From assembly GCA_963555755.3 (NCBI GenBank), contig OY820905.2:2016001-2080000 (forward strand): a stretch of DNA of 64,000 nt, read 5' to 3'. Position 1 is the stretch's first letter; every line of letters begins with the position of its first letter. The stretch comes from Nitrospirales bacterium (GTDB taxonomy: Bacteria; Nitrospirota; Nitrospiria; Nitrospirales; UBA8639). Of the stretch, positions 9,357 through 63,804 are shown one piece after another. Below the pieces are notes generated by a model that was not told where the DNA came from, did not search any database, and worked only from the letters and a program-made list of their open reading frames with translations. The position numbers and the translations under genes were made by a program.

Positions 9357-10076
9357 ATGAGTGGCACACTGTACATCGTTAGCACCCCAATCGGAAACCT
9401 CGAGGATTTTTCCTATCGGGCACACCGTATTCTCCAAGAAGTCAGCATTATCGCGGCAGAAGACACGAGGCATACTCAAAAACTTTGTGGTCATTATGGA
9501 ATTACGACCACACTGACGAGTTATCACGACTTTAACAAAGAACACAAAACACCGGTGCTTTTGGAAAAACTTCAGGGAGGACAATCAGTCGCGTTAGTTT
9601 CTGATGCAGGAACCCCTTTAATCTCTGATCCGGGATACTACCTCTTGACTCATGCTATTGCCGAAGATATTCCAATTGTGCCAATTCCCGGCCCCTCCGC
9701 TATTCTGGCAGCACTGACCGCATCGGGCTTACCGACAGACGCCTTTCGCTACGAGGGGTTTTTACCCAAAAAATCAGGGGCCCGCTCTCGAATGCTACAA
9801 ACCTTAGCGGAGGAGCCCCGAACCATCATCCTCTTCGAGACACCCCACCGTATTAAAGCGACATTATCTGAAATACAAGAAATTTTTGGAAATCGTCAAT
9901 TAACTATGGCCCGCGAGTTGACCAAAACTTATGAGGAATTTATTCGAGGAAGTGCCGAGGACATTTTGGCAAGGTACGGAACTCAAACGCCTCGAGGGGA
10001 AATAACGCTGGTTATTGCAGGCAGGCCAAAAACGAAAAGGCAATCAAAAAGGAACATGGCCGTTAAGGGCCTGTAA
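9357..10076 (+). CDS. rsmI: 16S rRNA (cytidine1402-2'-O)-methyltransferase
   Basis: LYIVSTPIGNLED, AAEDTR, VSDAGTPLISDPG and RELTKTYEE motifs. Confidence 0.96.
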   Translation: MSGTLYIVSTPIGNLEDFSYRAHRILQEVSIIAAEDTRHTQKLCGHYGITTTLTSYHDFNKEHKTPVLLEKLQGGQSVALVSDAGTPLISDPGYYLLTHAIAEDIPIVPIPGPSAILAALTASGLPTDAFRYEGFLPKKSGARSRMLQTLAEEPRTIILFETPHRIKATLSEIQEIFGNRQLTMARELTKTYEEFIRGSAEDILARYGTQTPRGEITLVIAGRPKTKRQSKRNMAVKGL

Positions 10077-10244
10077 AAAAATAACTTGGACATCTCGCAT
10101 CCCATCTTCGAGCCATCTTTGAACGCGCCTCAATCGAAAAACCTCAACAGAGGCATACTATGCCTCGACTTTTTCTCAATCGTTACGTCCAAATCCAACC
10201 CAAATCTGGGCACGATTTTGTCCAAGATATTTTTTCACAGGCCC
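10067..10244. mobile_element. MITE family H copy (empty)
   Basis: TIR GGGCCTGTAAAAAAATA / TATTTTTTCACAGGCCC with a 3-bp TSD TAA. Homologous to 36504-36682 and 59922-60723. Confidence 0.85.
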
Positions 10245-17309: not shown

Positions 17310-17709
17310 TATTGGTGTGCATGGTGAAATATCGATGGTGATGAGACATTTTTGTATTTTGGCTGGTGCGCCAAGAAGCCTGTCCGAGATTAGGGATCGT
17401 CACGAGGATGTGCTGGTTTGAGTCAGATGTTTCGATCGTTTGAGGCGAATATTGGTGACTATTTAACGAAAACGGGGAATGTTCAAAAAGGCCGTCCAGC
17501 AAGGCCGCAGGGCTTTTGGCGCGCGGAGCGTACACGGAGTACGTGAGCACGCCAAAAGCCCGAGAACGCAGCTGGCGGCCTTTTTCAACATTCCCCGAAA
17601 AGGATCGGAAGATCTGGCCATACCCAGCGTACCCGCAGTAGATCCGTCTAATCTTGGACAGGCTCCTACAGCTTGCGCGGACCTTTGTGATCCAACTGCT
17701 GTTTCTAGG
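17310..17709 (-). mobile_element. Nested MITE: D (partial) containing E (17375-17666) containing B (17474-17596)
   Basis: Reverse-complement homology to 21162-22044; D end GTTTCTAGG followed by TTGAA. Confidence 0.8.
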
Positions 17710-21161: not shown

Positions 21162-22044
21162 CCTAGAAACAGCAGTTGGATCACAAAAGTCCGCGCAAGC
21201 TCTTAGGGTCCGTCACGAAATAACCGGGACAATTGGCCGAGACGATTTTGGAGCGAGCCAAGGAGCGAAGAGCGCGCATACCGGGAGTATGGAAGCGATG
21301 AGCGACGCCGGCGGAGCCCAAAAGCGTCCGGCCCTCCGGGGAGGCCCATCTTTGGCCCGGGGCAGCGTTGCTCCTCGGTCACAGAGCCCCGCTCTGCTCC
21401 CTCGTCGCGCCTTGCCTCGATCACAAATCTGGGCCTCCCAATTGTCCCGGTTATTTCGTGACGGACCCTGAGCGCACATAGGAGCCTGGCCCAGATTAGA
21501 CAGATCTACTGCGGGTGCGCTGGAGGTGGCCAGATCTTCCGATCCTTTTCGGGGAATGTTGAAAAAGGCCCCCAGCTGCGTTCTCGGGCTTTTGGCGTGC
21601 TCACGTACTCCGTGTACGCTCCGCGCGCCAAAACCCCTGCGGCCTTGCTGGATGGCCTTTTTGAACATTCCCCGTTTTCGTTAAATAGTCACCACTATTC
21701 GCCTCAAACGATCGAAACATCTGGCTCAACCCAGCACCCCCTCGTCACGATCGCTAATCTCGGCCAGGCTCCTCGCAAAATACAAAAATGTCTTATCACC
21801 ACTAAGGGCTCTCGCAGGAATAACATCCCCTGTTTGGGTGCTGAGACACCTGTCTGGCAAGGCGCGAGGACTGCGCATACTCCTCGTATGGAAAGGACGA
21901 GCAACGCTGCCAGACGGGATGGATCGACGCCCAAACAGGGGATGTTATTCTTGCGCGAGCCCTTGGGTGCCCACGACTTTTTGTATTTCACCATGCACCC
22001 CAATGTCTTACACGGCTTTTTTGCGCCCAACTACTGTTTCTAGG
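21162..22044 (+). mobile_element. Nested MITE: D containing F (21206-21468), E (21481-21772, itself containing B 21551-21673) and G (21806-21962)
   Basis: D TIR CCTAGAAAC/GTTTCTAGG with 5-bp TSD TTCAA. F TIR GGGTCCGTCACGAAATAACCGGGACAATTGG. E TIR GGAGCCTGGCC. G TIR GGGCTCTCGCAGGAATAACATCCCCTGTTTGGG. Confidence 0.88.
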
Positions 22045-36503: not shown

Positions 36504-36682
36504 GGACCTGAGAGAAAATAACTTGGACATCTCGCATCCAATCTTCGGGCCATCTTTGAACGGGCCTCAATCGAAACACCCTCAATATAGCTGGGCTATG
36601 CCTCGGGTCCTTCTCAATCGTTCCGTCCAAATCCGACCCAAATCTTGGCGCAATATTGTCCAAGATATTTTCTCTCAGGTCC
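36504..36682. mobile_element. MITE family H copy (empty)
   Basis: TIR GGACCTGAGAGAAAATA / TATTTTCTCTCAGGTCC. Confidence 0.85.
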
Positions 36683-40828: not shown

Positions 40829-41169
40829 GGAGCCTGTCCGAGATTCGCGATCGTCACGAGGATGTGCTGGTTTGAGTCAGATGTTTTGATCATTTGAAGC
40901 GAATAGTGGGAATATTCAAAAAGGCCGTCCACCAAGACCGCAGAGCTTCCCGGCCTTCGTAGCCAAAGGCTACTTCGGCGGAGTAGGCTTAGCGCGCGGA
41001 GCGTACACGGAGTACGTGAGCACGCCAAAACCCCGAGAACGCAGCTGACTTGTCTGCCGTAGCCTTGGCGAAGGCTGGTGGCCTTTTTCAACATTCCCCG
41101 AAAAGGATCGGAAGATCTGGCCACTTCCAGCACATCCGCAGTAGATTCGGCTAATCTGGGACAGGCTCC
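40829..41169 (-). mobile_element. MITE E containing B (40908-41099) with REP-like inserts
   Basis: TIR GGAGCCTGTCC / GGACAGGCTCC, flanked by TA on both sides. Confidence 0.82.
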
Positions 41170-45940: not shown

Positions 45941-46097
45941 GGGTTCGCGCAAGAATAACTTCCCCTGTTTGGGTGCTGAGACGCCTGTCTGGCAAGGCGC
46001 GAGGACTGCGCATACTCCTCGTATGGAAAGGACGAGCAACGCCGCCAGGCGGGATGGATCGACGCTCAAACAGGGGAAGTTATTCTTGCGCGAACCC
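45941..46097. mobile_element. MITE family G (157 bp), free-standing
   Basis: TIR GGGTTCGCGCAAGAATAACTTCCCCTGTTTG with TSD TTA. Confidence 0.9.
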
Positions 46098-55807: not shown

Positions 55808-56925
55808 TTAATCCGGCAATACTAGACCGTGCATCCTATGCAGCATAAGCAATCTTGGGATGGTTGAAGTACTTTTTCACCCTATTCGGCAACTTCTGCA
55901 ATTTCGTCATGTGCGAGCGCACCTTTTTCTTGAGCCCCGCTGCATCGCGAGCCGGGGAGCGTGAATGCACTCCGGCCTTCAGATCGCCATTCAAATATTC
56001 GTCAGGATTCAACTCCGGGGAATAGGCGGGGAGAAAGAACAGTTCGAGGGCCTTCGTGTAATCCTTCAACCAGTCCTTGACCACTCGGGCATGATGGACC
56101 CGCAGATTGTCTAGAATCAGAAAGATCTTCCGATCCGCCTCCTTGAGCAATTGCTTGATGAATTTGATAAACATCTTCGCGTTCAGGGTCTCCTGGTACA
56201 GCATGAACCGCACCTTCCCCTGGTTGGTGATCGACGAAATCATGGTGATCGAAGCCCGCTTGGCCGATAACCGGATCACCGGCGTCTTGCCTTGGGGCGC
56301 GTACCCTCGTCCATGCTGGCAGTCACTCCGAACGCCCGTCTCATCCCCCCAATGAATCTCAGCCCCTTCTTGCTTGGCCCGTTTGGCAATTGCCGGGTAG
56401 GCTTCATCCAGCCACTTCCGGACTGCAGCCGGGCGTTGTTCATATGCCTGTTTCAACGGCTTTTGCGGCGTAAAGCCCCACCGCTTCAGATACTCCCCGA
56501 CCGTCCGAATCGGCATGGTGATGCCCAAGCGAATCTTCATGAGTTCTTGCACCGCCTGGCGGGTCCAGAGTGCAAAGACCAACTGCAACTGATCCGGGGT
56601 CTTCTCCACAATCACCCCTTGAATCTCTTGTTCCTGGGACGCGGTGAGCGTGCGCCAGTGGCCGGGCTCAAAGCCGCGCGGCTTGGAGTGCAAGCCTTTG
56701 AGCCCTTCCCGTTCATAGACCTGCCACCAGTTGGAGACGGTGTTCCGGTGGACCCCCACGATTTCGGCAATCTCCACATACCGGTGGCCCTTCTTCTTCA
56801 GGCGGATCGCTTGTCGGCGTAATTGTTCCTGTGTCTCGGGTGTGAACGTGCGTGCGTCGTCTTTTTTCATGGGGCAGTATACCAGCATTCAACGCTTAAT
56901 GCAATCTATAGTATTGCCAGGTTAA
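55808..56925 (-). mobile_element. IS630 family insertion sequence
   Basis: IR TTAATCCGGCAATACTA / TAGTATTGCCAGGTTAA flanked by TA on both sides. Confidence 0.9.
55836..56888 (-). CDS. IS630 family transposase
   Basis: WGDETG, ILDNLRVH and YSPELNPDE motifs. Confidence 0.95.
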   Translation of the reverse strand: MLVYCPMKKDDARTFTPETQEQLRRQAIRLKKKGHRYVEIAEIVGVHRNTVSNWWQVYEREGLKGLHSKPRGFEPGHWRTLTASQEQEIQGVIVEKTPDQLQLVFALWTRQAVQELMKIRLGITMPIRTVGEYLKRWGFTPQKPLKQAYEQRPAAVRKWLDEAYPAIAKRAKQEGAEIHWGDETGVRSDCQHGRGYAPQGKTPVIRLSAKRASITMISSITNQGKVRFMLYQETLNAKMFIKFIKQLLKEADRKIFLILDNLRVHHARVVKDWLKDYTKALELFFLPAYSPELNPDEYLNGDLKAGVHSRSPARDAAGLKKKVRSHMTKLQKLPNRVKKYFNHPKIAYAA

Positions 56926-57014
56926 TAGTCTGCATATAAGTGGAATTAGGGCCGGGCATGAGTATTGAGTTTTAAGGAATCTCTTTTAAAGGTGATTTTA
57001 ATAAAGTTGAAGAG

Positions 57015-57452
57015 TTATCCAACCCAAATTGTATCCAGCCTGAGGTGAACCGCTGCCTCCCGTTGTTTTGAATCCCCTGTAATGATTGGTATCTGAATGC
57101 CTGAGGCTGCTTGAAAGGTCAGTATCGAGGCAAGATGAATGGCATCCAACGTTCGGAGTTCCGTTTTAAGAATCACCTCGTCTGCCTTCTTGAGAACTAA
57201 GGCACTCACTTCTACGAGCTCCCAGAAAGCGTGGTCGGCTTTGATCCTGCTTAGGATTTCTGCAAAATGTTTTGCAGTCAATTCTCCCAAGGTTCGTCGT
57301 CGAGACAATGCGGATATGGCCTCGGTTGGGGCAATGGCCGATGTCAGAATACGATGGGTTTTTAAAAGATGACGGGCATCGGTAGAACCCTCTTCCCGGA
57401 CATACCGTTTCACGAGCACACTCGTATCGAAATAGGCCCAAGAGGTCGACAC
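57015..57452 (-). CDS. vapC: VapC PIN-domain toxin
   Basis: YFDTSVLVKRY, LRTLDAIHLAS and TGD motifs. Confidence 0.9.
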   Translation of the reverse strand: MSTSWAYFDTSVLVKRYVREEGSTDARHLLKTHRILTSAIAPTEAISALSRRRTLGELTAKHFAEILSRIKADHAFWELVEVSALVLKKADEVILKTELRTLDAIHLASILTFQAASGIQIPIITGDSKQREAAVHLRLDTIWVG

Positions 57453-57730
57453 TAGGAGCGATCGCGCTCCTCTCGCAAAGTCCGAGACAAAGGGACCCCC
57501 TTTAGGGGACGAGGAGCCCAGGCGGGGAAAGGAGACTTCTTTTGAGCTGGCCGGAGTAACCCTGCTTCTTCAAGGCGTCTTACAGCCGCGTCACCATTTT
57601 GCCGTTCCTTGAGGGGTTTAATCGTGGCAATCGGCTTCCCACGCTCTGTCAACACGACTTCTTGCCCGGCTTTCACCGCCTTGATCGCTTTGGAAAAATT
57701 TTGATTGGCTTCCCTTAAGCCCATTTCCAT
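57452..57730 (-). CDS. Phd/YefM family antitoxin
   Basis: GLREANQNFS..VKAGQEVVLTERGKPIA. Confidence 0.88.
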   Translation of the reverse strand: MEMGLREANQNFSKAIKAVKAGQEVVLTERGKPIATIKPLKERQNGDAAVRRLEEAGLLRPAQKKSPFPAWAPRPLKGVPLSRTLREERDRS

Positions 57731-58051
57731 GGTTTGCTCTCCGTAATGTAGTAATGTCACTACATTAACTGACTTGTTCTTTTCTGTCAATCTTTCTCTT
57801 CTTTTTCCTGCGCTATGAAATTGAAACCTGAGGCTACTTTTTCCATTCGCAAAGATATAGCTCGGTTTAGTTGGGCGGCGACTTGGTCGCCGCCCACGCT
57901 GAGTGTTTCAATGGAAGTCCATGGGAAGACGTCACCTAGGACCTCTCTACGATGTCCTTCTGCAAGGAGCCGATTATTCCCAAGAGTTCTTTCTGTTCCT
58001 GTTTGGGGACCTTGAATTTTCTCAAGGTGGCTTTCAGGTGCCCCGCGACGA

Positions 58052-58844
58052 GGTATTGTCAACTTAACGATCGATGGGCAAATTGAACCAGCTAAGTCAA
58101 GCTGCTTATGCGCACACCGCTTCCTCCCAGACCTGAAAGGCCTGGGTGCGCAACAGTCGATAATGGACCGCCTGCATGAGGTGGCGGCCAAGACGAAAGA
58201 GGTTCTGGGTGAGTCCGTGTAACGTCAAAAACCGTTGAGCGTGAGTTGCTGAAGAAAACCCTCGCATATGATATTCTTGTTGCCGCGTGGGTTGGTGTGA
58301 CACTTCAACGCGGTTATTCGCGTAGACCGCATTGATATGCTCGACGGTCGGCATGGCGACCCGGTGTGCGGCGCCGTAGCTTTTGAGTGTGTTGGTAATC
58401 ATCCAGCGCGGCTCCCGGCCTTGGCCTTTCAGTAAGCGGCGGAAGAAGCGCACCGCCGCGTGTTTATTGCGTCGGCGTTGCACCAACATATCAATGGTAT
58501 CGCCGTCTTGATCCACGGCTCGCCAGAGATACTGCTGTTCGCCTTGGATGGACACAAACACTTCATCAAGATGCCACGTCTCACCGAGACGACCTTGTCG
58601 CTTCTTCAATTTCCGTGCATAGGCTGGCCCAAACTTTCGGCACCATTGACGAACGGTTTCATAGGTGACGGTGATGCCACGTTCGGCCAGCAATTCTTCG
58701 ACTGCACGGAAACTGAGGCAGAAACGATGGTACAACCAAACGGCATGGCTAATAATTTCAGAGGGAAAACGGTGACGTTGGTAGCTGGGTGGTTTATTGT
58801 TCATACAGCCCAGTCTGCCAAGTGCAACTTAAATTGACAATACC
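58052..58844 (-). mobile_element. IS6 family insertion sequence
   Basis: IR GGTATTGTCAACTTAA / TTAAATTGACAATACC. Confidence 0.9.
58106..58804 (-). CDS. IS6 family transposase (second catalytic Asp appears to be Asn)
   Basis: YQRHRFP, WHLDEV, MITNTLKSY and NNRVE. Confidence 0.9.
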   Translation of the reverse strand: MNNKPPSYQRHRFPSEIISHAVWLYHRFCLSFRAVEELLAERGITVTYETVRQWCRKFGPAYARKLKKRQGRLGETWHLDEVFVSIQGEQQYLWRAVDQDGDTIDMLVQRRRNKHAAVRFFRRLLKGQGREPRWMITNTLKSYGAAHRVAMPTVEHINAVYANNRVEVSHQPTRQQEYHMRGFSSATHAQRFLTLHGLTQNLFRLGRHLMQAVHYRLLRTQAFQVWEEAVCA

Positions 58845-59027: not shown

Positions 59028-59912
59028 TCAATCACACGGTAGTTTTTCTTGGGAGGTGTCTTGGGTTTCTTTGATGACAAAGCCACCTTCGTCGATGACA
59101 TCCGTCGGCTCTTCTAAGATGACTTCGAGTAATAGTTTGGTTCCTTTGGGTGTTAACCCATGGGAGGGGGCAATGAAATGTTTACGCGCAATTCGTCGTT
59201 CGTCCGGATCGTCCGGCTCGTAATATCCCAGCAACTCTCCACTGGTATTCGCCGCGGTCAGGCGGGTGGCCCAATCTTCCAGTAGGGGTTCGGTCCAAGT
59301 ACCTATGCGCTGGGGTTCTCGATGCTGTTCTAATTTCGTCCAGATGTGCCAACCGATAAACACGGCCCAGGTTTCGTTGATGACTTCCCAGGCATCTTCT
59401 TTGGAAAGAAATCGCATCTCGGTGGCATCCCGTCGCTGCCGTACCGGATTGATTCGCACAAATCGATAATGACAACGAAGCTGCTCATTGGCGAAGGTGA
59501 GCACACGGTTGGCGTTGGCGCTCAACCCCTCGGGTCCAGGCCCATTGAAAATGTAATCGAGATACGCATGCAAGAGTTCATGGTACAGCAAGCTGACATC
59601 ATGGTGGGTCATGCGGTCTAACGACTTCAGCACCCCGCCGGCGCTATTAAACGACAACCGCATGTTTAAGATCATCCGGTGATCCTCGGGATGATATTCT
59701 GCGGCATAGGTGCGAAGGTCTTCGAATACGACTGTGACAAAATTCGGGTCGATCTCGTTGAGGAATTGGGTGGGCAAGCCTAAGCCTTCGGCTTGTTTGA
59801 CTAAATTCGGCCAGGCATTCGTACCTTCGGCACTCTGAGCAAACCGCGTCATTCCTAACACGACGCCCAATAACAGAATCGCCAAGACCCATTTTAACGT
59901 TCCCTGCATCAT
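59028..59912 (-). CDS. Exported hypothetical protein with HExxH motif
   Basis: Signal peptide; YHELLHA ... INETWA. Confidence 0.75.
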   Translation of the reverse strand: MMQGTLKWVLAILLLGVVLGMTRFAQSAEGTNAWPNLVKQAEGLGLPTQFLNEIDPNFVTVVFEDLRTYAAEYHPEDHRMILNMRLSFNSAGGVLKSLDRMTHHDVSLLYHELLHAYLDYIFNGPGPEGLSANANRVLTFANEQLRCHYRFVRINPVRQRRDATEMRFLSKEDAWEVINETWAVFIGWHIWTKLEQHREPQRIGTWTEPLLEDWATRLTAANTSGELLGYYEPDDPDERRIARKHFIAPSHGLTPKGTKLLLEVILEEPTDVIDEGGFVIKETQDTSQEKLPCD

Positions 59913-59921
59913 GTCGTCTTA

Positions 59922-60723
59922 GGACCTGAGAGAAAATAACTTGATCAATCTCAAATCCAATCTTCGGGCCATCTTTGAACCTAGAAGCAGCAGTTGGATC
60001 ACCAAAGTCCGCGCAAGCTCTTGGCGCACATAGGAGCCTGGCCCAGATTAGACAGATCTACTGCGGGGGCGCTGGATGTGGCCAGATCTTCCGATCCTTT
60101 TCGGGGAATGTTGAAAAAGGCCCCCAGCTGCGTTCTCGGGCTTTTGGCGTGCTCACGTACTCCGTGTACGCTCCGCGCGCCAAAACCCCTGCGGCCTTGC
60201 TGGATGGCCTTTTTGAACATTTCCCGTTTTCGTTAAATAGTCACCACTATTCGCCTCAAACGATCGAAACATCTGGCTCAACCCAGCACCCCCTCGTCAC
60301 GATCGCTAATCTCGGCCAGGCTCCTCGCACAATACAAAAAGGTCTCATCACCACTAAGGGTTCGTGCAACAATAACTTTCCCTGTTTGGGTGCTGAGACA
60401 CCTGTCTGGCAAGGCGCGAGGACTGCGCATACTCCTCGTATGGAAAGGACGAGCAACGCCGCCAGACGGGATGGATCGACGCCCAAACAGGGAAAGTTAT
60501 TGTTGCGCGAGCCCTAAGGTGACCACGACTTTTTGTATTGCACCATGCACACCAATTTCTTACCCGTCTTTTTTGCGCCCACCTGCCGTTTCTAGGTTGA
60601 ACGGGCCTCAATCGAAACACCCTCAACATCGCTGTGCTATGCCTCGGGTTTTTCTCAATCGTTCCGTCCAAATCCAACCCAAATCTTGGCGCGAAATTGT
60701 TCAAGTTATTTTCTCTCAGATCC
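59922..60723 (+). mobile_element. Four-level nested MITE: H > D (59980-60596) > [E (60033-60324) > B (60103-60225)] + G (60358-60514)
   Basis: TSDs: H TTA, D TTGAA, G TAA. Removing D regenerates a close match to the empty H copy at 36504-36682. Confidence 0.9.
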
Positions 60724-62739
60724 TTACCTCCAGCGATAAGGCTCCCCTTCATCCACCACACTCCACGCCTCGACAAGATCCGCTGGCACTTCGTCCAAAA
60801 ATCTCGACGGCTTGGAGAGCACCGACCCTGTCACTTTATCATACACATTTATCGGGAAGGTCAGGTAGAGATGTTGTTTGGCTCGGGTTACCGCCACATA
60901 GAGCAGCCGACGTTCTTCTTCTACATCATCTTCGGTGAGAAACGAATAGGAAGAGGGGAATCGGCCATCCACCAGCCAAATCACAAACACGCACCGCCAT
61001 TCCAGCCCCTTGGCTGAATGAATGGTTGAGAGAATGAGCCGTTCATCATCACGGTCGGGCGCATCAATATCCACCACGCTTTCATTCGGGGGCTCAAGGG
61101 TCAGATCCGCAAGAAAGTCCCCTAAACTACTATAGCGCTCGGCCATCACCTGAAGATGTTCCAAGTCTCGAATGCGCTTGGGGTAGTCGTCATACTGGTC
61201 TTTCAAAATCGGGAAATAATATTCGAGCATCTGTTGGATTTGATCCGTCGGCAGCCCATCCTCCGCGTGGCCGACCGCATCAAGCGCTGCCGCTAAATTC
61301 CGCAACCCGTAAGACGACCGCCCTGTGATGTCTCGCAACACGTCACAGGGTGTGTCTGTATTGACTAAGCGAGCGATTACGTCCTTTGCCCGTTTCTGGC
61401 CAACGCCATCGATTAGCAGCAGCACGCGATGCCAACTCACGGTATCCAGCGGATTGTGTATCACCCGAAGATGGGCCAAGAGATCCTTGACATGCGCGGT
61501 CTCGATAAACTTAAACCCACCTCGTTTGATAAACGGGATATCTCTCTTCGAAAGCTCCACCTCTAAGTCAAACGCATGAAAACTCGAGCGAAACAGCACC
61601 GCGATGTCATTCAACGGTACGCCTTCGTCCCGCAATTCTAAAATCTTTTGTGCCACGAAACGAGATTGCGGATTTTCTCCCGCAGCTTGTACCAATGCCG
61701 GTCGCTCGCCACCTTTTTTTTTCGTAAACAAGGTCTTGCTGTATTTTTCCGTTGAGCCTTCGATGATGGCATTGGCCAACTCCAACACGGATTGTGTGCT
61801 GCGGTAATTTTCCTCTAACTTGAAAATCTGCGTGCCCGGGAACAATGTCGGAAAATCCATGATGTTGCGGAACGTCGCCCCACGAAACGCATAGATGGAC
61901 TGCGAGTCGTCCCCGACCACCATCACGTTGTCGTGCGTCGAAGCCAGTTTACGCACGACCTCGGATTGCAATCGATTGGTATCCTGATACTCGTCCACCA
62001 ATAGATAGCGGTAGGTTTCGGAAATCATGCGCCTCGCGGATTCATCCACTGTTAACAATTCACGAAGGCGTAGCAGGAGATCGTCATAATCGACTAATTG
62101 CCGTTGCCGTTTGGTGGACTCATACCCCTCCTGCAACTTCGTCAGATCGGTCAGGTATTCTCCAAAATGGCTGTACTCATTGAGCAAGACATCATCCAGC
62201 GATTGAAGAGTATTCGCACATTTGCTGAACATGTCGGCAATCGTTTTTTTGCGCGGGAACCGTTTACCTGTGTCGATCGGGCCAATTTGCCCACGCACCA
62301 TATTGACCAAATCTTCGGAATCCCCACGGTCTAAAATGGTGAAGCCCGGCTCTAAGCCAATGACCCGGCCAAAGCGTCGAAGCAGGATATTCGCCACGGA
62401 GTGGAAGGTCCCGCCCATGACTCGATCACTTTGAGGACCGATCAACAGCCCAACCCGGCCCAACATTTCCTGTGCAGATCTGCGCGTAAAAGTCAGCAGG
62501 AGGATCGAGGCTGGATCTACTCCCATATCAATCAGCCGAGCCACGCGATACACCAATACCCGTGTTTTGCCACTCCCCGCCCCGGCAATCACCAACGCGG
62601 GGCCGTTGACCTTTTCCACAGCGGCTAACTGTTGCGGGTTGAGTTCTCGGGCATAGTCTCGGGAGAGGGGCCGAACCGGCGTATCGGCGCTCGGCCGATT
62701 GAGCACATAGACTTTGGATTCAGGTTTCAGGGTATCCAT
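60724..62739 (-). CDS. UvrD/PcrA-like ATP-dependent helicase
   Basis: AGAGSGKT, VDEYQD, VGDDSQSIYAFRGA, NYRST, TIHSAKGLE and EERRLLYVAVTRA. Confidence 0.94.
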   Translation of the reverse strand: MDTLKPESKVYVLNRPSADTPVRPLSRDYARELNPQQLAAVEKVNGPALVIAGAGSGKTRVLVYRVARLIDMGVDPASILLLTFTRRSAQEMLGRVGLLIGPQSDRVMGGTFHSVANILLRRFGRVIGLEPGFTILDRGDSEDLVNMVRGQIGPIDTGKRFPRKKTIADMFSKCANTLQSLDDVLLNEYSHFGEYLTDLTKLQEGYESTKRQRQLVDYDDLLLRLRELLTVDESARRMISETYRYLLVDEYQDTNRLQSEVVRKLASTHDNVMVVGDDSQSIYAFRGATFRNIMDFPTLFPGTQIFKLEENYRSTQSVLELANAIIEGSTEKYSKTLFTKKKGGERPALVQAAGENPQSRFVAQKILELRDEGVPLNDIAVLFRSSFHAFDLEVELSKRDIPFIKRGGFKFIETAHVKDLLAHLRVIHNPLDTVSWHRVLLLIDGVGQKRAKDVIARLVNTDTPCDVLRDITGRSSYGLRNLAAALDAVGHAEDGLPTDQIQQMLEYYFPILKDQYDDYPKRIRDLEHLQVMAERYSSLGDFLADLTLEPPNESVVDIDAPDRDDERLILSTIHSAKGLEWRCVFVIWLVDGRFPSSYSFLTEDDVEEERRLLYVAVTRAKQHLYLTFPINVYDKVTGSVLSKPSRFLDEVPADLVEAWSVVDEGEPYRWR

Positions 62740-62934
62740 TGATTCAAAACCGGAAGGTCGTCGGGAGGGGGCCGTCTTGTAATACTGAGCCGTGTATAGC
62801 ATACGAGCAGGAGGGTGTTCAACGACAGGCCTACGATATCTGTCCATCCCCCAAATGGCCGTAAGGTGGCGCACTTGCACCACCTTTTCCGCATTTGTTT
62901 ATAATAACAACTTCACACTAAATCTGGAAACACT

Positions 62935-63804
62935 ATGGACGTTAAAAAAGAGCACGAAACCATTCTCAAAAACTTAGCGGACACCATGCTGGGTATCGCG
63001 CGTGAATCCGTTTCGATGGTGAAACGGAGTGATCAAGAAGTTTCCACCAGATTGAGCCGTGAACAGGAATGGGAAATTTATCTTGAATTTCTGAAAGTCA
63101 TGTTCAACCTTGCCGACCGTGTGTCCGCCTTTTACATCCCGCTTCAACAACAGCCGCAATTCATGGACAGTCTTGAAGACCACGTGAGCGATCGCCTGAC
63201 AACCCTCCTCGCCCCTTCCATGAGTTCGTCTGAGATTGATGATCAAGAATTGATGCTCTCCATGGGAAAAGCCGTTGCGGAAAGCCGGGAGATTTATGAA
63301 AAATACAAGTTTGTGTACTCAGAAGATACCAAAGCGCGGAATGCCTTTTTCCAACATGCAGCGGAACGTGTGGCCGGGAGCGCAGGCTCCTCTAACAATC
63401 AAGCCATTATTTCAGCGTCAACCTTATGTACCAGTGCAGTCATTCCTGCTATGACGGCCCTTTTTGAGGGCAAAACTGGGCAAGAATCTTCGGAGCCTGC
63501 TCCCTCTCAAACGGAGACTCCTCCCACCAGCTCTGACACTACCACTTCGGGGCCGGGAACCTCAGAGCCCTCCACCCCTGGACCGCAAGCCATCAAGCTC
63601 ATTAGTGTGATCTCAAGTATCTCAGGGGAGGAATTCGAAACACGCTGGGGACTGTTTCCTCAATTTCGACAAGACCTACGGCCGGAACACGTGAAGGAAT
63701 TAACCACGCATATGAACCGGGTTGCTCAAATCCTGGGGGATCGATTTGCCGTGCTCTCATCAAAGCTTTCTGAAGAATCAAACCAGCCATCTGGCAATGC
63801 CTAA
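62935..63804 (+). CDS. Hypothetical protein
   Basis: 289-aa ORF, two domains joined by a S/T/P-rich linker. Confidence 0.7.
   Translation: MDVKKEHETILKNLADTMLGIARESVSMVKRSDQEVSTRLSREQEWEIYLEFLKVMFNLADRVSAFYIPLQQQPQFMDSLEDHVSDRLTTLLAPSMSSSEIDDQELMLSMGKAVAESREIYEKYKFVYSEDTKARNAFFQHAAERVAGSAGSSNNQAIISASTLCTSAVIPAMTALFEGKTGQESSEPAPSQTETPPTSSDTTTSGPGTSEPSTPGPQAIKLISVISSISGEEFETRWGLFPQFRQDLRPEHVKELTTHMNRVAQILGDRFAVLSSKLSEESNQPSGNA

Follow-up and report, generated by a model that had tools for sequence, protein, structure and literature searches.

The window analysed here is a stretch of 64,000 nucleotides (C1:2016001-2080000) of a 4.62-Mb, two-contig Nitrospirales genome, and at 59922-60723 it holds a nest built from five small non-autonomous elements. 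Profile searches alternating with excision give the architecture as H[D[E[B],G]], a nest of four levels, and self-comparison combined with an inverted-repeat search finds that each layer has its own terminal inverted repeat. The features of the locus are:

59028..59912, minus strand: 294-aa ORF of no known family (no Pfam), with its start 9 bp beyond the left end of H
59922..60723, plus strand: MITE H, the outer layer; 180-bp core split at a TTGAA slot; target duplication TTA at 59919-59921 and 60724-60726
59980..60596, plus strand: MITE D; 163-bp core with CCTAG ends; target duplication TTGAA at 59975-59979 and 60597-60601
60033..60324, plus strand: MITE E; 163-bp core with GGAGCCTG ends, IS1182-like; flanks TA/TC, imperfect
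60102..60226, plus strand: hairpin element B, 125 bp, in a fixed slot of E; TTTT on both sides
60358..60514, plus strand: MITE G, 157 bp; occupies the central loop of D and has TAA at either end
60724..62883, minus strand: UvrD/PcrA-like helicase gene, below the curated cut-offs of pcrA/uvrD

This arrangement of layers had been proposed in the initial annotation and is confirmed, with the duplications given for each layer. H, D, E and G, with cores of 157-180 bp, are MITEs in that they have terminal inverted repeats, are shorter than 300 bp and carry no transposase. H was inserted at the TAA stop codon of the helicase gene, which forms its right target duplication. The nest folds into nested hairpins (z = -20), as expected from its inverted repeats, and an Rfam search of its elements returned no matches at E ≤ 1. 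Nests of four levels are rare, being found in 3 of 819 top-level elements on contig C1. The adjacency of the 294-aa ORF to the helicase gene is conserved in relatives; another ORF of about 290 aa, also without a Pfam family, lies at 62935-63804, and the region just left of the nest (55836-58804) contains IS630 and IS6 transposases together with a toxin-antitoxin pair of the PIN / Phd-YefM type (57015-57790).

The empty H, free G, E with B and free B copies that the initial annotation had named elsewhere in the window are all present, and two further composites were found:

9055, 23667 and 31688: free B-type copies
10067..10244, plus strand: empty H; target duplication TAA
17336..17714, minus strand: truncated D carrying E[B] (E at 17375-17666) in the other E slot of D
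21162..22044, plus strand: second composite, D[J,E[B],G]; target duplication TTCAA; layers J 21206-21468, E 21481-21772, B 21550-21674, G 21806-21962
36504..36682, plus strand: empty H; flanks TTT/TTG, imperfect
40829..41169, minus strand: free-standing E[B], with B lengthened by small hairpins
45941..46097, plus strand: free G; target duplication TTA

An assembly chimera, raised earlier as a possible objection to the nest, is not borne out. Contigs from four sequencing runs that are 100% identical to the window cover 59860-59950, 59921-59986 and 59973-60098 at approximately single-copy depth, although these runs may themselves be the source of the assembly and the evidence consists of contigs, with no spanning molecule. 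Together, the contigs across 59860-60098 cross the flank/H, H/D and D/E junctions, and cover is found in 30 of 30 bins. The same junctions occur in two relatives (G005 and G006) and every layer has a clean duplication, so that an artefact of collapsed repeats is scarcely credible even though no single contig spans the whole nest.

Repeat families and candidate transposases

Profiles built from natural empty copies of 13 repeat families, applied in rounds of search and excision of complete elements, recovered 988 full elements on C1; C2 and partial copies were left out, and at least one H was missed. Full copies number 118 for H, 118 for D, 88 for E and 168 for G, with an exact target duplication at 73, 79, 41 and 93 of them, respectively. 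Of the 121 copies of family A, 97 show a duplication of 4 bp. Overlaps at orthologous empty sites are mostly of 3 bases for H, 5 for D, 2 for E, 3 for G and 4 for A (one of two sites). The 79 anchored free copies of B show no consistent target duplication, and TTTT flanks are found only inside E. The outermost arm bases of free B co-vary between left and right, a pattern in the sequences that suggests selection or repair acting on the hairpin rather than fixed transposase ends.

In total, 92% of MITE bases are intergenic. The chromosome is very repeat-rich, with 14% of C1 in 16-mers present four or more times, and it carries further MITE families (K, M, N, O and P); matches to DDE_Tnp_1 number 70. 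Although their ends are unrelated, B, G, H and J have a common central dyad around a variable 5-base spacer (approximately GCGTAC-N5-GTACG or GCATA-N-TATG; in the window at 60140-60185, 60415-60460, 60615-60655 and 21270-21320), which may resemble the ERIC core, Rickettsia palindromic elements and dif sites and might be a dif-like recombinase site. When H, G or J inserts, the CTWAG target is restored on either side, so that tandem arrays with a triplet in common can form. Sixteen adjacent pairs of top-level elements are of this kind, and each of the 10 H copies within D has J (or G) as its neighbour. An E[B] composite with 89% identity is also present in the genome of another genus of the family (G018:C41:8208-8499).

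Duplications of 2, 3, 4 and 5 bp, together with the match of E to an IS1182 element, support the earlier suggestion that several transposase families are involved. The specific partners proposed at the time were not recovered: on C1, neither the PF01609 and PF13701 hits nor an end-based scan provided an IS5-like element with 3-bp TWA targets for H, G or J, and no close match to the ends of D was found among the IS1380 and IS1634 elements examined. The ends of D, which may resemble that of ISEcp1, agree with the IS1380 ends of this genome (CCCAAGATCC) at 8 of 16 bases and with those of one IS1634 (CCTACATTCC) at 11 of 16, the duplication being 5 bp for D and 6 bp for that IS1634. End scans on C1 likewise gave no close autonomous partner for D, G, J, A or B. 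For E, the candidate is an IS1182-family element (C1:1335227-1336892; two copies) with GGAGCCTG ends and a TA duplication within CTAG; the match is limited to the outer 8-13 bases, from which mobilisation of E by this element can be proposed on sequence grounds. H has the 11 bases CTGAGAGAAAA in common with the ends of an ISNCY element (four copies), of which the duplication is 2 bp. An IS1634 gene between H ends (C1:2549815-2551856) was rejected as the autonomous partner of H, as it belongs to a separate element (C1:2549953-2551809) inside an H copy, with its own ends and a 5-bp duplication. Separately, an IS110-family RNA-guided transposase occupies one site in the B2 repeat in about 12 copies that are 92-100% identical (for example C1:2353081-2354440); this is a natural repeat-targeting IS110, and its guide RNA could be compared with the B2 target.

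Nesting is concentrated in a few reused slots

Nested elements make up 169 of the 988 (17%), against approximately 141 expected from the 14.3% MITE share of intergenic DNA under an upper-bound null of uniform intergenic insertion with the present MITE share and a crude ORF mask. Nesting is enriched for B1 (47/152), J (29/37) and E (22/88), and depleted for A (3/121), B2 and K. When sorted by inner family, host, site and orientation, the 169 elements fall into 29 classes, which is near the roughly 37 founder nestings predicted for six families by target-motif weighting (summed rows). The general preference of non-autonomous elements for one another, as put forward in the initial annotation, is not supported by this overall count, by the depletion of A or by the number of classes.

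The excess is confined to a few slots that are reused, mostly 10-38 times, in one orientation: E holds B 38 times, D holds J 28 times, G 27 times and H 10 times, H holds D 18 times, and two further slots of D hold E 12 and 4 times. Occupancy reaches 38 of 88 E and 28 of 118 D. D lies in H in one orientation at a ratio of 18:1, whereas free D has no polarity (TTCAA 20, TTGAA 17). Almost every combination of present and absent layers is seen, a pattern that a single nested genealogy could not generate.

Such slots could be hot spots into which free copies transpose independently and target-specifically. The H slot is indeed a perfect D target, in which a D of opposite orientation sits with a clean duplication (C1:3644194), and H and G also land beside other elements on a shared triplet, but target weighting predicts 0.4-3.5 events per pair where 10-29 are observed. 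The inserts furthermore have one orientation, belong to inner clades and lie between flanking bases that have been replaced rather than duplicated. Independent insertion is therefore largely refuted for the bulk of the nestings, for which it is very improbable, and explains the founders.

Related inserts lie in unrelated hosts

The nearest neighbour of an insert lies in the same slot far more often than after shuffling, with frequencies of 0.70 versus 0.14 for D in H, 0.99 versus 0.24 for B in E, 0.78 versus 0.16 for G in D and 0.81 versus 0.13 for E in D (p = 0.0005 for five slots); by this measure J is not significant, since 28 of the 37 J are nested in D. The hosts do not behave in this way: the corresponding frequencies are 0.12 versus 0.14 for hosts of D in H, 0.40 versus 0.42 for B in E, 0.33 versus 0.22 for G in D and 0.22 versus 0.09 for E in D (all p > 0.06). 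The hosts of H in D do cluster by this measure (0.42 versus 0.08, p = 0.001). On trees of the inserts, slot labels change less often than on shuffled trees (B 3 versus 34, D 10 versus 17, E 4 versus 11, G 13 versus 25, H 6 versus 10), whereas on host trees, once the slot columns are masked, none of six slots can be told from shuffled labels (all p ≥ 0.14). An apparent clustering of D hosts for G (p = 0.005) was discarded because it vanished with the slot columns masked (p = 0.14).

Filled hosts also seldom have a filled near-identical twin (0/20 for H, and 8/52 and 2/44 in the other two comparisons), in contrast to empty ones (27/98, 36/66 and 13/44; p = 0.006, 2e-5 and 0.003), a difference to which age may contribute. 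D and H distances do correlate among H[D] copies (Mantel 0.47, p = 0.002; 0.41 far from the slot), D in H being the only case with a significant host-insert correlation, and three D[J] composites at different sites are 98.1-99.1% identical. The pair C1:68940/75153 was rejected as a case of composite transposition, given that the outer flanks are shared, as in a segmental duplication. Proximity of donor and recipient is not borne out as a rule: sequence distance and chromosomal distance are unlinked in four slots, and E in D alone gives a significant correlation (rho 0.68, p = 0.002).

The site and its junctions in relatives

Thirty relatives were searched for the locus, and loci were obtained from 11. 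In G005 and G006 the same 180-bp H is present but empty, with one TTGAA, and in G001-G004 H is absent, with a single TTA or TCA at the site. G005 and G006 are 94.9% and 90.0% identical to this genome and 89.8% identical to each other; as this genome and G005 are closer to each other than to G006, H was at the site before filling, which took place in this lineage. Of the insertion order that the initial annotation had regarded as readable, the first step thus holds (H came first here), whereas the topology gives no order of arrival for E, B and G, because E[B] and G have different closest relatives. The two copies nearest to the H of the nest are empty, and the six nearest to its D all lie in H, this D belonging to a lineage found mainly inside H. 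The nearest E, 1.3% different, is that at 21481 in the window, in a D of another haplotype, and the composite at 21162..22044 is a likely exchange partner for the E[B] of the nest. The copies nearest to its G lie in other D.

A wider comparison covered 311 loci of G005 and G006 (1.2 Mb, overlapping), which are the only two usable relatives and are fragmented; comparisons with G005 alone are not polarised. At H[D] loci the H of the relative is empty in 6 of 6 clear cases, with one further locus ambiguous and one in the reverse direction. Of the E[B] loci, 2 of 2 have an empty E in G006 and 4 of 4 a filled one in G005, and one D[G] is common to this genome and G005. The host is wholly absent in relatives at 8 filled E and 3 filled D loci, and these 11 are compatible both with gene conversion and with composite transposition. 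Two loci were left out of the count, C1:4188424, for which the two flanks disagree in G006, and C1:718922, where this genome has a deletion. Among 61 genomes the exact H[D] pattern was found only in this genome and G005, the pattern being strict and many of the genomes fragmented.

The bases at the slot junctions differ between filled and empty hosts. Of the 18 filled H, 6 have an A just before the D slot, and all 6 contain one and the same D variant; this A is seen in none of the 100 other H. At 4 of 4 orthologous pairs it is found in the filled and not in the empty partner (C1:1396547, 3935197 and 4569641; in the reverse direction, 4487424). At C1:3087474 a variant left duplication arrived with the insert. 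At C1:4437559 a private D haplotype is common to G005, G006 and this genome. It is unfilled in the two relatives, with TTG and AAA at the two slots, and filled here, J being flanked by TCA and TTA and G by TAA on either side. More generally, the J slot of unfilled D reads TTG in 55 of 66 copies (11 not parsed), and all 28 J-filled D have TTA/TCA/TAA and TGA/TTA/TAA at the junctions; TAA at the G slot is seen in 0 of 60 parsed unfilled D and on the right in 21 of 27 G-filled ones. A DDE transposase duplicates its target and cannot replace junction bases, and after plain excision they would still be found in the emptied host. Both the replaced bases of filled hosts and their absence from empty ones would be explained if the insert was copied from a filled paralogue.

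The conversion tracts look short. At C1:1396547 a private G three bases further out was kept while the donor A was taken, and allele sharing with the likely donor, 0.30 against 0.04 within 3 nt (n = 27), drops almost to background at distances above 25 nt, on a decay curve that is noisy owing to small counts. Of 172 differences between orthologous MITE copies, 67 correspond to alleles that are common in paralogues, where 27 were expected, in a test that ignores transition bias and hairpin self-correction. Transfer is non-reciprocal, flanking alleles are co-converted and outer flanks are unchanged, as in ectopic gene conversion. Both recA and mutS are present in the genome.

Transposition of composites as units by their outer ends, with mosaics arising later through loss or recombination, has several observations in its favour, namely the D/H correlation, the clustering of H-in-D hosts, the near-identical D[J] trio, the 11 filled D and E loci wholly absent in relatives, and the four E[B] and one D[G] common to G005. 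As a general account it is quite unlikely, given that hosts are unclustered on trees, that filled twins are scarce and that orthologous hosts are empty and without the junction base that plain excision would leave. Whole-composite transposition therefore looks minor, but the first three of these observations indicate that some composite transposition, or some long tracts, probably occur. Of the earlier claim that nested elements move as composites, what stands is that inner sub-assemblies travel together, probably by host-to-host copying; movement of whole nests is mostly unsupported, given unrelated filled hosts, few twins and empty relatives.

Discussion

On the evidence of sequence comparison, the outer H was resident and empty, and the inner layers were probably copied into it later by short-tract homologous recombination. 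For the chromosome as a whole, the founder nestings are likely to be chance insertions that then spread from host to host by short-tract gene conversion. Composite transposition predicts related hosts and independent insertion predicts inserts that are unrelated and lie in both orientations, and neither holds; between transposition and recombination, the junction bases are decisive. Each slot would go back to a single ordinary transposition, or very few, at a site of suitable sequence (for H, TTGAA; for D, TA or TWA; for E, TTTT), after which the host arms of 40-125 bp flanking the slot could serve as homology for copying the insert and its junction bases into other resident hosts, possibly with RecA, a candidate participant of which the gene is present. 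Hosts would transpose mostly when empty. In the nest, D would have come from another H[D] and G from another D[G], and E[B] would have been exchanged with the D at 21162 in the window. A further point against conversion is that these arms are 5-13% divergent and short for RecA, in a genome with mutS.

A more far-reaching reading is that non-coding MITEs home, with breaks at empty slots repaired from filled paralogues, so that an insert lacking any enzyme sweeps through its host family and layered hyperparasites accumulate. We regard this as doubtful. True homing, in which a transposase or a hairpin-cutting nuclease breaks the empty slot, repair proceeds from a filled copy and filling is favoured over emptying, is unlikely. 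It would fit the very short left tracts (as at C1:1396547), the high occupancy of slots in E and D and the fact that the polarised changes are all gains, but the empty J and G slots (TTG; CGA/CAA/AAA) are off the CTWAG target and should not be cut by the cognate transposase. Moreover, the same behaviour is seen in six families whose ends differ, the elements are non-coding, and loss by conversion is traceless, which makes a filling bias unmeasurable. If homing were true, bacterial MITEs would have a second, transposase-independent route of multiplication and nesting order would be useless for dating insertions.

Gene conversion from founder nestings would have practical consequences. About one in six copies lies in the slot of another element, and most of these seem to derive from copying between resident repeats and not from transposition; the multiplication of bacterial MITEs has so far mostly been inferred from element ends. 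Nests are thus unsafe as insertion chronologies or as composite transposons. They also provide a natural marked assay for ectopic conversion, with junction bases, five slots and hundreds of loci, covering arms of only 40-125 bp in a mismatch-repair-proficient bacterium. Our literature search found no report of host-to-host copying of nested prokaryotic MITEs, which does not by itself establish absence from print. The process is not described in the available portions of PMC2703918, PMC11602168, PMC7002104, PMC2884548, PMC3184786, PMC2229807 and PMC10969869, and the words 'nested', 'mosaic' and 'conversion' are absent from the last.

Several known systems bear comparison with these slots. In intron and intein homing, and in ectopic gene conversion between transposon copies, an insert is copied from a filled to an empty allele and flanks are co-converted. 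Unlike in intron and intein homing, there is no endonuclease or reverse transcriptase in the element here, copying would take place between paralogues scattered over the chromosome, over arms of 40-125 bp, and any bias towards filling is putative, as losses are invisible in sequence. The nearest precedent is ERIC, in which fixed positions reportedly hold short inserts whose evolution is separate from that of the surrounding ERIC copy (Wilson and Sharp 2006). Those inserts would show the same discordance between inner element and host, but here the inserts are free-living MITE families in several layers, and orthologous empty hosts with imported junction bases point to conversion.

Prokaryotic MITEs such as RUP, Correia and ERIC are described, in the portions available of PMC10969869 and PMC2229807, as intergenic, hairpin-folding elements of 100-200 bp with terminal inverted repeats and target duplications, and the partner of RUP, IS630-Spn1, was inferred from shared ends. 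The elements studied here resemble these accounts in size, inverted repeats, duplications, intergenic location, hairpins and a partner IS proposed from the ends, and differ in that at least six families lie in one another up to four deep and in fixed slots. The insertion sequences IS1397, IS621 and IS1594 target REP repeats (PMC3184786, in the part available), and as here, including IS110 in B2, one site in a repeat is occupied again and again. However, going by that account, REP-targeting insertion sequences encode the enzyme that does the targeting, whereas the MITE inserts described here are non-coding and bring host flank bases with them.
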